This document shows positions 1 through 27,080 of a stretch of 64,000 nt of DNA, in pieces. Each line of letters starts with the position of its first letter. Position 1 is the first letter of the stretch. The position numbers and the translations under genes were made by a program. The stretch lies in assembly GCF_056712565.1 (NCBI RefSeq), contig NZ_CM160072.1; one strand, 5' to 3'. The notes beneath the pieces were generated by a model. It ran no database searches, was not told the DNA's origin, and was given only the letters and a program-made list of their open reading frames with translations.

Positions 1-394
1 GACCAAGCGTTGGTGCGATTGTTGCTAACTGATTACTGGTTGCGGTGGAACCCAATCCACCTGTTGCTTCCGCTGCCGCCAGACTCTGATAGCGAGCCTG
101 ACCTGCAAGGTCTTTATACTGCTGAGAGTTGTAATACTGGTTAAGTGCCTGACCTTGCCCTTCCAGAGACGATAAGTTCTCAAGGCTGCCGACATACTTC
201 CCAGCCAGAGGAGTAAACAGCTTCAGGTTGTTCATGATGGTGTTGAACTGCTGATTTTGCAGGTCTGCGGCATACTTCTGAGCTTCTGCTGCATACTTTG
301 CGCTTTTATCAGAACTGCCACCTTTCCCGCCTTTTTCAGGGTAATAAGGTTCCTCGCCGCGCAGTTTTCTGCCCAGCGTAAATGCATATAACAT
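1..394 (-). CDS. P22 gp7-like ejection (internal virion) protein, N-terminal part; gene starts at 394 and runs off the window
   Basis: Minus-strand ATG at 394..392, translates MLYAFTLGRKLRGEEPYYPEKGGKGG...; position after gp14-like gene as in P22; identity from memory. Confidence 0.55.
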   Translation of the reverse strand, partial: MLYAFTLGRKLRGEEPYYPEKGGKGGSSDKSAKYAAEAQKYAADLQNQQFNTIMNNLKLFTPLAGKYVGSLENLSSLEGQGQALNQYYNSQQYKDLAGQARYQSLAAAEATGGLGSTATSNQLATIAPTLG

Positions 395-396
395 GG

Positions 397-852
397 CTAT
401 CTCCCGTGATTCAGGAAGTCGATTAGTTCTTCGCGTGTGGCGCTGTAAAACGTCACGTCATCCACGCCTTTGAAGTATTTCTTGATGGTTCCTACACGCT
501 TAAGGCCAATCATTGCGCAGTACATCTGCCCGTGGCGGAATTTGCGTGCAGCAAATGATGTGACGCACTGAACGGTGGTGTTGGTCAGAATGTATCGCCA
601 GAACGCCAGCCCTATTTCCTTGCTGAAGCCGCGAATCTCTGGCAGGTACATGGCGTGGCAATCGAATGTAAGCGGCTGAATCTCCTGATAGTAAACAATG
701 CCGCCAAACTGACCGTGCACGTTCACCTCAAAGTAACGGCAATCAGGTTTGTAGTCGTATCCATCACCGTTGTTGCTCCCGGCGATGATGTCAGGGTGAT
801 TTCCTACTGCTTCGATCAGGTCGATGTTTCGCGTTGGTTTGAATGTAATCAT
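397..852 (-). CDS. P22 gp14-like virion/ejection-associated protein
   Basis: 151-aa ORF; start overlaps stop of tail-needle gene; follows gp26 as in P22 gene order. Confidence 0.5.
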   Translation of the reverse strand: MITFKPTRNIDLIEAVGNHPDIIAGSNNGDGYDYKPDCRYFEVNVHGQFGGIVYYQEIQPLTFDCHAMYLPEIRGFSKEIGLAFWRYILTNTTVQCVTSFAARKFRHGQMYCAMIGLKRVGTIKKYFKGVDDVTFYSATREELIDFLNHGR

Positions 853-1553
853 CAGTCAATCAGCCCATGTAATCTAAGTGCTGTTTCAAGCGCCAGAATA
901 CGCTGCCGCGCCTGCTCCAAACCTGTAGCGATAGCTGCGACTTCGGATTGTGTGTACGTAGTGCCGACCGTGTATGACTGGTTAGCGTTGAATGAGCCAA
1001 GAAGTGGTGTGCCTGTGGCCGCTGTCCATCCGGTCTGCCTTGCTCCAACGACCTGAATTCCATCAACTGAATATGATGTTTTTACATCCAGCGGTGACGC
1101 AAGAGACTGCGATTCTGTTACGGTTTTCGATACGTAATCACTCTTAATGTCAGATATATCGCTTTCTACGCCATCCAGTCTTTGGTCAACAGTGACCAGA
1201 TGCGCCTGAATATCGATAACCTCATCCAGCAAGTAATCAACATCGCTACGCAGTACAACTATCTTCCCTTCGGCGGTTGTTAACCTGACCTCAAGGAGAT
1301 TTATCGCTTTTGTGTTTGCGGTGATTCTTGCATCGTGGTCAGCCAGTTCGACATCCTGTTCATCGTTTTTCACCTGAGCATCGTAAGCGCCCTGACCAGC
1401 CTGATTTGCTTTCCCGGCAATTGCGCCGACATCAGCCCCCTGATTAATGACATACAGCAGGTAAGACTGGCTGAATATATTGCGTGGAAGGATTGATGTA
1501 TCGAGCCGCGTCGCCTGCACAATAACAGGGGTGTTGAGATTCGAATCAGCCAT
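852..1553 (-). CDS. Tail needle protein (P22 gp26-like)
   Basis: Internal start [25 protein letters not shown]... closely matches recalled P22 gp26 N-terminus; ATGA overlap with upstream gene at 1553; 233 aa. Confidence 0.8.
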
Positions 1554-2971
1554 TACTCGATCCTTATCTGGCAGCCAGACAGAGTGACAGGTGACTTCGT
1601 GATAACGCGCAATTTGAAGCCGACATTTTTCCTGATGCGCCCGACTCGCTTCCACAAAACGCGTTTGTCGTAAACAAACGGTTCATTCTGCTCAATCATC
1701 TGCTCACGACCGTAATTGATGCCGTCAGTGGTTGCAGAGAGAAAAAGGCGGTCGGCGTACTGCGCAACGCCAGTTGAAGATTCAACTTCAAGGTCGAAAA
1801 CTCTGGCGTTATCCGCTTTGAACAGAGGAGTAAACAGCAGATGCTCCTGTTGCTTGTCGTACTGGCTGCTGATGTCGAATTGCAATTTCCCGGTCACGGA
1901 CTCCAGCTTATCGCCGCACGTTATCTGATTGCCTTCGTAAATGAAGTCGATAGCGCGGTACACATCGTCATACAGACCTGTTTTCAGTACACACCATTGC
2001 GGAGCATTGGCGCTTGAAGATGCGTCGTATACGAGGACATGGCGCGGAAGATGGATAATCAGCAGCTCATGCGCATCAAATCGCAGAGACTCCATCACAC
2101 CATCAGCCAGTTCATCAGCAGTGTAGGAGCGAAGAATTTTCTCAATGCTCGCGCTGGCGATTGGTGACACCTGCCCGGAACCGATGATGTATACAGACGG
2201 CGCACCTGTTGCCGGATTGCTGATGAACGCATAGGAATCAGCGAATGGCGTTTTGCAATAGGTTCCGGCGATGCCTTTTTGCACCATCAGTGATGGCTGT
2301 GCGACATACAAAGCAGCACCAACGGTGGTTGCGCCAGTCAGGGAGAAATATTCAATAGTCGATGAACCAAAGCAGACGATGAAGTCTCGCCATGTCCCGA
2401 TACCGATGATGCCGTCCGGCTGCGATTCTGCGCGATATTGTGCACTGTATCGGTCAGGGTGCGATTCGTCTTCAAGGTCAGTGATAAACCATGAATCAGT
2501 TCCGTCTTTTGACCACGCATAACGCCCACGTAAGCGAGTAATGTCGCGAACTGAACCTAACTCATACTGCGTGAATCCACTGTCTGTAGGCCAGTTTGAG
2601 ACGGTTTTAACCGTGCCATCATAACGATACTCGACCAGTTGACCATTAACGCCTACAGCCTGTGATGTTCGACCATGCGCCATTGATACGCGACCACTTC
2701 CGGCGACGTCACCGACTTCGCTTTCTCCTTTGTACAGCTTGCCGCCACACACGCGATAAACAGCACTCTGCGCCATGTTGTACTCGACGCCGCGCGATAT
2801 ACCATTCACATCAGAACGTTTGGCAATGCCCGGGAATGAGCGAAGATATCCGCTGCTGTTCAGGATTTCTTTGGGCGTAGCCAACATATTCACTGGCAGA
2901 TAGTCGATATAGTCGGCGTTTCGAAAGTCTTTGCCGACACCTTTCATAAGCGGAAGTTGCTGAATCGGCAT
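1553..2971 (-). CDS. Tail hub / head-completion protein (P22 gp10-like)
   Basis: 472-aa ORF, same length as P22 gp10, located between gp4-like and gp26-like genes. Confidence 0.7.
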
Positions 2972-2980
2972 TTATTCACC

Positions 2981-3442
2981 TCACGTACTCGGATCATCTT
3001 TCTCGATGTAAAACCGATTCCACGTAAACGCGCTTTTGTTACCACTACCGCGAGGCATGTCATTTCGCCGCTCAAGTGGTGGTATTTTGGTTAAAGCGAT
3101 ACAGATTGTCTGATATGCACTGTCAGCAGCGGTAAGGAGAGCGTCTGACGGCTGAATGACGTTATCCATGCACACTTGCACAGCGAGTTTCAAAGCGACG
3201 CCATCATTTGCCCATGCAGGGATGCCTGAATCATCGTCAGGTAACGGCATGATGCCGTTTTCTGTATCAGCAAACTGATACCCAAGCTCGATACCTTTCG
3301 CCTGCCATGCTGCCATCATGTCTTCGAGGTCATTAATGGCATCTTCAATTGCCTGAGGGTCAGCATCTGTCAACGTGGCATTGGAATACAGCCCGGCTTT
3401 TCGTAAAGCCTTTAGAACGAGATCACCCTTCGTTTTCGCCAT
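2981..3442 (-). CDS. Tail adaptor / head-completion protein (P22 gp4-like)
   Basis: 153-aa ORF immediately downstream of coat gene region, as in P22. Confidence 0.55.
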   Translation of the reverse strand: MAKTKGDLVLKALRKAGLYSNATLTDADPQAIEDAINDLEDMMAAWQAKGIELGYQFADTENGIMPLPDDDSGIPAWANDGVALKLAVQVCMDNVIQPSDALLTAADSAYQTICIALTKIPPLERRNDMPRGSGNKSAFTWNRFYIEKDDPST

Positions 3443-3611
3443 CTTCTTCCGCCTTAGCCACTTTTTGCTTCGTTGCGGTTTCTTCAGGAGTTTTTACCCA
3501 ACCTTTTTTCAGGTGAGATTTAACTTCTTCGTCATCAACAATGATGTAATCGACAGCAAACTGACCGCAGGTGATCATGTTGCCTGGCTTATAGAGCATT
3601 GTTCGTGCCAT
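3423..3611 (-). CDS. Small hypothetical protein between coat and gp4-like genes
   Basis: 62-aa ORF from internal ATG at 3611 with GGGAGAAG Shine-Dalgarno; overlaps gp4-like start by 20 nt. Confidence 0.3.
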   Translation of the reverse strand: MARTMLYKPGNMITCGQFAVDYIIVDDEEVKSHLKKGWVKTPEETATKQKVAKAEEDGENEG

Positions 3612-26494: not shown

Positions 26495-26566
26495 TAATCC
26501 TCGCACTCGCGGGGATTTCTTTTATCTGAACTCGCTACGGCGGGTTTTGTTTTATGGAGATGATAA

Positions 26567-26734
26567 ATGCACTTCCGAGTCACAGGTGAATGGAATGGAG
26601 AGCCATTCAACAGAGTTATCGAAGCAGAGAACATCAACGACTGCTATGACCACTGGATGCTGTGGGCGCAGATAGCACATGCAGACGTAACTAATATTCG
26701 AATTGAAGAACTGAAAGAACACCAAGCCGCCTGA
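26567..26734 (+). CDS. Small hypothetical protein (55 aa; below the ORF-track cutoff)
   Basis: Own translation MHFRVTGEWNGEPFNRVIEAENINDCYDHWMLWAQIAHADVTNIRIEELKEHQAA; GGAG Shine-Dalgarno; stop inside terminator stem. Confidence 0.45.
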   Translation: MHFRVTGEWNGEPFNRVIEAENINDCYDHWMLWAQIAHADVTNIRIEELKEHQAA

Positions 26735-26746
26735 TGGCGGTTTTTT
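26727..26746 (+). terminator. Rho-independent terminator ending the early-left operon
   Basis: CCGCC-TGAT-GGCGG followed by TTTTTT. Confidence 0.6.
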
Positions 26747-26791
26747 ATTGCCTGATTTGCAGGTTCGATTCCCTATTCGGAGATAGCACTC

Positions 26792-26992
26792 ATGCAACAC
26801 GAACTACAACCTGATTCACTGGTTGATTTGAAATTCATCATGGCCGATACTGGCTTCGGTAAAACCTTCATCTATGACCGGATTAAGTCCGGCGACCTGC
26901 CAAAAGCCAAAGTTATCCACGGGCGAGCAAGATGGTTATATCGTGACCATTGTGAATTCAAAAATAAGCTCTTAAGCCGCGCCAATGGGTAA
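26792..26992 (+). CDS. torI: TorI excisionase-like recombination directionality factor
   Basis: 66-aa ORF MQHELQPDSLVDLKFIMADTGFGKTFIYDRIKSGDLPKAK... matching recalled K-12 TorI; adjacent to attR and dsdC as in K-12. Confidence 0.9.
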   Translation: MQHELQPDSLVDLKFIMADTGFGKTFIYDRIKSGDLPKAKVIHGRARWLYRDHCEFKNKLLSRANG

Positions 26993-27064
26993 AATAGCGG
27001 GTAAAATATTTCTCACATCTAAAAAACACCATTCCAATCAATCCCCTGCCGCCTCAAGTAGATG

Positions 27065-27080
27065 TCTGCAGGGGACACCA
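27065..27080. other. attR core (argW 3'-end identity block)
   Basis: CTGCAGGGGACACCA matches the recalled 3' end of tRNA-Arg argW; preceded by AT-rich arm with GTAAAATA direct repeats. Confidence 0.65.

Follow-up and report, generated by a model that had tools for sequence, protein, structure and literature searches.

A well-preserved CUS-3-type prophage abutting dsdC and the lesions carried by its nearest relatives

We analysed a stretch of 64,000 nucleotides (nt) from contig NZ_CM160072.1 of NCBI RefSeq assembly GCF_056712565.1 (the whole of which is referred to here as the window), whose left part, positions 1-27081, is a contiguous segment of a P22-like/lambdoid prophage, dense in phage genes. 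Genes run leftward from position 1 to about 20.5 kb and rightward from 20.6 to 27 kb, and from 27.2 kb onwards they give way to host genes in the order found in K-12: dsdC, dsdX, dsdA, emrYK, evgAS and others. The phage genes follow the lambdoid plan, with repressor, OR, cro, nutR, cII, O, helicase, nin, Q and lysis genes making up the rightward arm and OL, nutL, N and recombination genes the leftward arm. A first reading made from the letters alone (the original prediction) had described a P22-like/lambdoid mosaic prophage at the argW-dsdC site, where K-12 carries KplE1 (CPS-53), and had listed its modules; the site is borne out by a recombination core, CTGCAGGGGACACCAT, that bounds the element beside dsdC, and packaging, head, lysis, Q, nin, replication with iterons, immunity, N with nut sites, recombination, torI and attR are all present.

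When window 1-25000 was compared with phage records by megablast, CUS-3 (CP000711.1, from host E. coli K1 RS218) was the dominant match, with 91% coverage at 99.4% identity, while the runners-up, phiv205-1 and Kapi1, reached 74% and 70% coverage. Local BLAST resolved the match to CUS-3 into collinear blocks of 97-99.9% identity, and the proteins of the virion, lysis, Q, replication, immunity, N, erf and abc2 are 98-100% identical to those of CUS-3, which uses the same integration site. This identity had been missed in the original prediction, which had proposed K-12, P22, Sf6, HK620 and lambda for comparison. The KplE1 (CPS-53) DNA of K-12 matches only window 26742-27300, and the DNA-level coverage of the 27 kb amounts to 2.6 kb for lambda, 8.9 kb for P22 and 12.4 kb for HK620.

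At least 80% of the segment 1-25000 is present in 69 of the 5426 complete E. coli genomes, APEC O1 and S88 among them, and it is 100% identical in ATCC 11775, JCM 20135 and APEC E16002. Over 25001-64000 the closest genome is that of Z0117EC0054, which differs by one single-nucleotide polymorphism (SNP); ATCC 11775 differs there by five SNPs and one insertion or deletion. In annotated relatives the whole element reads argW, intS, an acyltransferase gene (neuO), the tailspike gene, ant/arc/mnt (immI), three genes for ejection proteins, the genes of the window, torI and dsdC. From one core to the other the element spans 40,177 bp in Z0117EC0054; in ATCC 11775 the figure is 42,860 bp. The window thus carries the right two thirds of the prophage. 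A tRNA search found no tRNA gene in the window, which places argW and attL outside it, as expected for an element in this orientation. We conclude that window 1-27081 is very probably the right 27 kb of a CUS-3-type prophage of about 40.2 kb (Lederbergvirus, P22-like), inserted at the 3' end of argW with dsdC directly beside it. CUS-3 is a temperate phage specific for the K1 capsule, found in E. coli of the ST95 complex.

The segment could instead belong to a different P22-like phage that integrates at argW, of the HK620, Sf6 or Kapi1 kind, bearing O-antigen-modifying genes (gtr or the like) and an O-antigen-specific tailspike, given the extent of the HK620 and Kapi1 matches and the fact that the recombination module and many other blocks are common to these phages. 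However, CUS-3 matches far better than any other phage; coat, scaffold and Q are specific to it; and the CUS-3 tailspike and neuO lie beside intS in all three of the near-identical genomes that were inspected leftward (ATCC 11775, APEC E16002 and Z0117EC0054). In these relatives neuO and an endosialidase tailspike take the place of the gtr genes that had been expected to the left. An origin from such a phage is thus extremely improbable.

The right end of the CUS-3-type prophage can be placed to the nucleotide. The 16-nt core CTGCAGGGGACACCAT, which occurs once in the window, serves as the attP core in HK620 and as the attL/attR core in K-12, and is the KplE1 recombination core used experimentally (PMC2951348). 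In a four-way alignment the window and the HK620 attP arm hardly differ (98.7% identity over torI and the arm, against NC_002730) from upstream of torI up to CTGCAGGGGACACCAT; past this point HK620 goes into its int side and the window into DNA shared with K-12. The torI product, a recombination directionality factor (excisionase) whose function has been established for KplE1 (PMC2951348, PMC3509656), lies just inside this boundary. The relatives encode an IntS 100% identical to that of K-12, and in those genomes the core sits in the 3' end of argW. The IntS/TorI module of KplE1 is conserved in CUS-3, HK620, Sf6 and the prophages of APEC O1 and UTI89 (PMC2951348; see also PMC3509656).

A second 16-mer, TTGCAGGTTCGATTCC, lies upstream of torI in the window, as it does in HK620 and K-12, and is identical to the T-arm of argW. 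Within the 3' end of argW TTGCAGGTTCGATTCC and CTGCAGGGGACACCAT are contiguous, whereas torI separates them in the window and likewise in K-12 and the HK620 record (the pair stands at 1368-1383 and 1677-1692 in HK620). The CUS-3 GenBank record takes TTGCAGGTTCGATTCC as its att core (CP000711.1, 1-31 and 40192-40207), and therefore ends 308 bp short and omits torI. It might follow that the element is composite, with CUS-3 proper ending at TTGCAGGTTCGATTCC and with torI and attR left over from an older KplE1-like prophage, as the labelling of TTGCAGGTTCGATTCC as attL and attR core in CP000711.1 and the match of this 16-mer at 26758-26773 to argW would suggest. Yet the circular HK620 record gives the order TTGCAGGTTCGATTCC, torI (hkaC), annotated attP core CTGCAGGGGACACCAT and int; the window departs from HK620 only after CTGCAGGGGACACCAT; the KplE1 experiments used CTGCAGGGGACACCAT; and a CUS-3 that ended at TTGCAGGTTCGATTCC would be a phage without an excisionase. 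We therefore regard a composite origin as very improbable and, on the comparison with the HK620 attP, reject 26758-26773 as the prophage end. The CUS-3 GenBank record, judged from these alignments, seems to have been delimited at the wrong repeat. The position of torI between two pieces of the argW 3' end that are otherwise contiguous, seen in all members of the module, may be a record of the entry of the excisionase gene into attP. We also noted that the attR core of APEC E16002 (about 1104-1119 of the comparison stretch) is short of one G (CTGCA-GGGACACCAT), either through an assembly error in a run of G or through a crossover-site mutation that might hinder excision.

Table 1. Features of the prophage segment. 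Percentages marked aa are amino-acid identities; E, expectation value; PGAP, Prokaryotic Genome Annotation Pipeline; ORF, open reading frame.
Feature	Position	Strand	Evidence
gp7-like ejection protein, 3' part, cut by window start	1-394	-	91% aa P22 gp7, 100% CUS-3
gp14-like	397-852	-	Pfam DUF2824
Tail needle, gp26-like	852-1553	-	62% aa P22 gp26, 95% HK620 needle gene, 100% CUS-3
gp10	1553-2971	-	Pfam Phage_stabilise, E 1e-299
gp4	2981-3442	-	Pfam P22_Tail-4
Major coat protein, CUS-3 branch	3653-4906	-	Pfam P22_CoatProtein, E 1.6e-75; 29% aa P22 gp5, 99% CUS-3
Scaffolding protein	4925-5818	-	Position; 100% aa CUS-3 scaffold gene
Portal protein	5909-8107	-	Pfam P22_portal, E 2e-169; 35% aa P22, 56% HK620, 100% CUS-3
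Terminase large subunit	8109-9524	-	Pfam Terminase_3, E 1.6e-41; 98% aa HK620
Terminase small subunit	9521-9961	-	Position, CUS-3 annotation; 100% aa CUS-3
Rha-like regulator/antirepressor	10434-10976	-	phrog_518, E 1.5e-81
Rz spanin	11322-11759	-	93% aa P22 gp15, 57% lambda Rz
Rz1, embedded in Rz, other frame	11375-11560	-	Lipobox LGVSAC in translation
Endolysin R, lambda-type	11756-12232	-	98% aa lambda R
Holin S	12216-12539	-	99% aa lambda S; Pfam Phage_holin_3_1
Candidate late promoter PR', TTGACA-18-CATAAT	13129-13158	-	Consensus scan, 11/12 matches; at Q 3' end
Late antiterminator Q	13136-13654	-	Pfam Phage_antitermQ PF06530, E 1.6e-25; 100% aa CUS-3
nin region: ninH, rusA, DUF1364, roi (KilAC), ninF, ninX, ninE, ninB	13651-16374	-	PGAP names, identical genome
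Frameshifted accessory gene, phrog_343 family	16574-16895	-	PGAP 'frameshifted'; ORF residues 27-104 match phrog_343 positions 53-125 of 135
DnaB-type replicative helicase (P22 gp12-like)	17283-18659	-	Pfam DnaB_C, E 9.5e-78; 90% aa P22 gp12
O-like replication initiator	18656-19543	-	Pfam Phage_rep_O; contains origin iterons ~19046-19188
cII, lambda-type	19901-20194	-	Pfam Phage_CII, E 5e-48; 98% aa lambda cII
nutR, boxA GCTCTTTAACA + boxB hairpin	20253-20295	-	Downstream of cro; hairpin folds
Cro, P22-type	20303-20488	-	Pfam P22_Cro, E 8.7e-28; 95% aa P22 Cro
OR1 20503, OR2 20526, OR3 20551	20503-20568	.	Three 18-mers fit operator pattern; region 77/80 identical to P22 OR
PR, TTGACT-16-GATAAT	20546-20519	-	Promoter scan; overlaps operators
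Repressor, P22 c2-type, LexA-like	20569-21219	+	Pfam HTH_3 + Peptidase_S24, E 1e-30; 92% aa P22 c2, 100% CUS-3 cI
OL operators 21287, 21322	21287-21340	.	Operator pattern + alignment to P22 OL; at least two
PL, TTGACC-17-TAAATT	21312-21340		Promoter scan; overlaps OL operators
nutL, boxA + boxB as in nutR	21387-21427	+	Upstream of N; 98.9% identical to HK620 nutL region
N-like antiterminator, HK620-type N terminus	21741-22040	+	95% aa HK620 N over 65% of length
cIII-like protein	22714-22884	+	phrog_550 'CIII anti-termination', E 1e-22
erf	23141-23746	+	Pfam ERF, E 3.5e-44
SSB-like	23746-24129	+	phrog_44
abc2	24153-24449	+	93% aa P22
DUF2737 remnant	24464-24547		PGAP annotation of identical genome
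DUF4752 accessory gene, frameshifted	25932-26217	+	One extra A vs CUS-3, A run at ~26079
Phage-borne 16-mer TTGCAGGTTCGATTCC	26758-26773	+	Identical to argW T-arm; 'attR core' label in CUS-3 GenBank record
torI, recombination directionality factor (excisionase)	26792-26992	+	100% aa K-12 TorI, HK620 HkaC
attR core CTGCAGGGGACACCAT	27066-27081	+	Right prophage end; 16 nt, single occurrence in window

The segment shares its gene order with P22 (NC_002371), and gp7, gp14 and gp10 are 91-93% identical in amino-acid sequence to their P22 counterparts. The gp14-like, gp26-like, gp10 and gp4 genes are tail and head-completion genes. The needle gene gave no significant Pfam match, and a Pfam search likewise returned nothing for R, scaffold or the small terminase subunit, which were placed by identity to lambda or CUS-3; no match to the window terminase was detectable in P22. 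The head genes had been called P22-type in the original prediction, which holds for coat and portal at the level of Pfam family. By identity, however, both fall on the CUS-3 branch and apart from the P22 branch (coat 99% against 29%, portal 100% against 35%), a division into CUS-3, P22 and Sf6 branches taken from 10.1101/626804.

The holin begins Met1-Lys2-Met3 (MKM) and is 99% identical to lambda S, and it therefore carries the dual-start motif; S, R and cII are lambda-type, all as first described, and lambda DNA matches 11511-12789 at 93% identity. The attribution of Rz and of the nin genes to lambda has to be revised, as Rz is far closer to P22 gp15 and only ninE (95% aa) and ninF (85% aa) are lambda-like, while rusA, roi, DUF1364, ninH and ninB are of HK620/HK97 type (aa identity to HK620: rusA 100%, ninH 100%, roi 98%, ninB 95%). 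Q has no amino-acid match to the Q proteins of lambda, P22 or HK620. The promoter at the Q 3' end is a candidate PR', a role suggested by its position.

In the replication region the helicase is DnaB-type (P22 gp12-like) and not lambda P. The O-like gene contains six TCATGTGCGG-type iterons with 12-nt spacing (19050-19176). Immunity is of P22 type with operators and a LexA-like repressor, as first read (c2, Cro and OR compared with P22 in Table 1), and the Peptidase_S24 domain of the repressor is full-length, which at sequence level predicts an SOS-cleavable protein. The N module with its nut sites also stands, and is of HK620 type: a pattern scan found two copies, and no more, of GCTCTTTAACA with the hairpin TCCCGCCGAAATGCGGGA behind it, both correctly oriented, where none is expected by chance, and the nutR stretch is 100% identical to HK620 9424-9527, which overlaps the annotated HK620 nutR. 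The N-like protein matched Pfam N_peptide weakly, at 19.4 bits against a cut-off of 27.9. We considered whether cIII had gone missing with the cIII/kil block of CUS-3, which is absent here, and rejected this on finding a cIII-like ORF of another allele at 22714-22884; kil was not identified in the window.

Viewed against each relative in turn, the segment resembles HK620 in its torI/attP arm, in the type of nutL, nutR and N N terminus, and in rusA, roi, ninH, ninB, gp7, gp14, gp26, gp10 and TerL (95-100% aa identical), whereas HK620 has 434/L-like immunity where the window is P22 c2-type, differs in coat, scaffold, Q, helicase and recombination genes, and has an O-antigen-specific tailspike. 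With P22 it shares c2 (92%), Cro (95%), OR (77/80 nt), the gp12 helicase (90%), Rz (93%) and abc2 (93%), in contrast to coat (29%), portal (35%), terminase and Q; moreover, P22 has adjacent int and xis at thrW with gtrABC, while in CUS-3-type prophages intS and torI stand at opposite ends. With lambda (NC_001416) it shares, besides S, R, cII and ninE, the overall regulatory layout, but it has no heads, tails, O/P, Q, cI or N of lambda type. KplE1/CPS-53 has the same att core, 100% identical TorI and IntS, and torI-attR DNA that is 96% identical. As stated in the original prediction, K-12 holds a decayed remnant at this locus, of 10.2 kb, sharing only the torI-attR end with the window; it retains gtr-like yfdGHI and has no repressor, lysis or head genes (PMC2951348).

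The activities of these modules are most likely those of their homologues. A P22 c2-type, LexA-like repressor acting at P22-type OL/OR operators would keep the prophage silent until DNA damage led to RecA-stimulated self-cleavage of the repressor and the release of PL and PR. HK620-type N, acting at nutL and nutR, would then extend early transcription, which would reach erf/abc2 and torI leftward, and cII, O, the DnaB-type helicase, the nin genes and Q rightward. TorI would act with IntS, whose gene lies at the far left end beyond the window, to recombine attL with attR at CTGCAGGGGACACCAT, and Q would turn on a late operon comprising lambda-type S and R, P22-type Rz/Rz1 and then the CUS-3-type genes for terminase, portal, scaffold, coat and tail completion.

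Every recognisable essential gene within the window is an open frame, but the statement in the original prediction that the ORFs of every module are uninterrupted is not fully true: among the accessory genes, those at 16574-16895 and 25932-26217 are frameshifted and 24464-24547 is a remnant. The DUF4752 gene is open in CUS-3 (95 aa), where the window has a +1 frameshift, and is annotated by PGAP as 'frameshifted' in three genomes. The ead/Ea22-like gene at 25360-25671, called 'partial' by PGAP, was rejected as a lesion: a 190-aa ORF is open at 25360-25932, and CUS-3 has an equally long open ORF at the matching position, which indicates that the call reflects mosaicism.

To the left of the window, which was read from relatives only, two virion genes are damaged in the genomes closest to the window, lesions of the kind that the original prediction had named as refuting it. 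In Z0117EC0054, APEC E16002 and 14 other genomes the gp16-like ejection gene carries a +1 insertion at about nt 197 (CTAGATC[A]GCT), outside homopolymer runs and some 2 kb before the window begins, which truncates a 670-aa ORF after 68 codons (29945-31958 of the APEC E16002 and 2687-4700 of the Z0117EC0054 comparison stretch). This insertion, found in 16 complete genomes, marks the sub-lineage nearest to the host flank of the window. In ATCC 11775, the type strain, the tailspike gene is interrupted after codon 10 by the IS21-family insertion sequence (IS) ISEc12 (istA/istB), with a 5-bp target duplication, ATTGT. The element lies some 10 kb before position 1 of the window (8380-11000 of the ATCC 11775 comparison stretch), and PGAP has re-annotated the tailspike from a downstream ATG, making it 11 residues shorter.

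Other differences were seen in the same region. The gp20-like and gp16-like genes and the immI region of the window's relatives differ from those of the RS218 CUS-3 record. On the immI side, ATCC 11775 (5015-6872 of its comparison stretch) has genes for a YafO-family toxin, a ClpP-like protease and a second Arc-family protein between the ejection genes and ant, none of which is present at the matching position of the RS218 record. The neuO acyltransferase is annotated at 336 nt in Z0117EC0054 (12130-12465 of the comparison stretch), 861 nt in ATCC 11775 (14060-14920) and 819 nt in APEC E16002 (38961-39779), lengths that fit the known phase variation of its heptanucleotide repeats, with the 336-nt copy of Z0117EC0054 in the phase-off state.

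P22 gp16 itself is essential. According to PMC8954989, short-tailed phages, among them the P22-like ones, need their ejection proteins in order to be infectious. The window copy stands at about even odds of being defective for infectivity yet able to excise, replicate and lyse its host.

Several observations weigh against a disabled copy, or against so close an equation with CUS-3 and its sequenced relatives. The gp16-like allele is open in 29 records, including ATCC 11775, APEC O1 and S88, and the ISEc12 junction was confined to the type strain's two assemblies, the tailspike start (ATGACAGACATTACAGCCAATGTGATTGTATCGATGCC) being uninterrupted in the other listed carriers, so that a fully intact source copy is possible. 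Over window 27001-52000 the collection of complete genomes contains no identical record, and the left third of the prophage was read from relatives. Finally, three blocks are replaced with respect to the RS218 CUS-3 record, making the window copy a variant: at 15424-15742 ninX is replaced; 15968-17254 has ninB and three small ORFs, 99.8% like phiv205-1; and at 22052-22880, after N, 0.83 kb of HK97/H-19B-like DNA stands in place of 2.2 kb.

The fullest form of the original prediction, a wholly intact and inducible prophage that would release infectious K1-specific virions, draws on these open alleles, on the intact Peptidase_S24 domain, and on essential genes that are open in the window and whose products are identical or 98-100% identical to those of plaque-forming CUS-3, which plaques on the K1 strain EV36 (10.1101/2023.08.15.553423). 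It is opposed by the gp16-like frameshift in the closest genome and 15 others, by the ISEc12 insertion in a type strain identical to the window over 1-25000, and by the frequent decay of CUS-3-like prophages, which lie between dsdC and argW and are prone to decay in many isolates (PMC9659370); the DNA that decides the matter lies outside the window. We place this full claim somewhat below an even chance. With lesions in the nearest relatives and open alleles elsewhere, the claim of intactness rests on the DNA left of the window. Where excision, replication and lysis are concerned, the description as apparently intact and perhaps inducible is plausible; for the infectivity of the window copy it may be wrong.

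The host flank calls for few remarks. A low-GC stretch (38-45%) at window 31000-46000, outside the prophage, holds emrKY, evgAS, yfdE/V, oxc, frc and yfdX, and is the usual acid-resistance/oxalate region, in the same place as in K-12. Between emrK and evgA the window has a run of A7 at 33956-33963 where ATCC 11775 has A8, and base 44591, in the yfdX region, differs from both ATCC 11775 and Z0117EC0054. The five ATCC 11775 SNPs (44591 among them) and the A7/A8 run are the only host-flank differences from these two genomes.

The CUS-3-type prophage described here is real and well preserved, but also ordinary and already known, being one more near-identical copy; the location of CUS-3 at argW-dsdC, neuO, the link of CUS-3/neuO to the sequence type 95 (ST95) complex of K1 strains (PMC3046976), its P22-like nature and the shared IntS/TorI module are already published. 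Its medical relevance is that of neuO, which lies outside the window and whose product adds O-acetyl groups to the polysialic acid of the K1 capsule in E. coli strains that cause neonatal meningitis or are pathogenic to birds, protecting against K1 phages (PMC9659370, PMC3046976). As minor by-products the analysis yields a precise right boundary for the element and a catalogue of lineage-specific lesions bearing on phage release by ST95 strains. It is conceivable, though less likely than not, that ST95 K1 lineages are independently inactivating different CUS-3 virion genes while keeping neuO, immunity, lysis and IntS/TorI perfectly conserved, with the window copy recently disabled. If so, the gp16-like frameshift of one sub-lineage and the ISEc12-interrupted tailspike of the type strain would be domestication caught underway.

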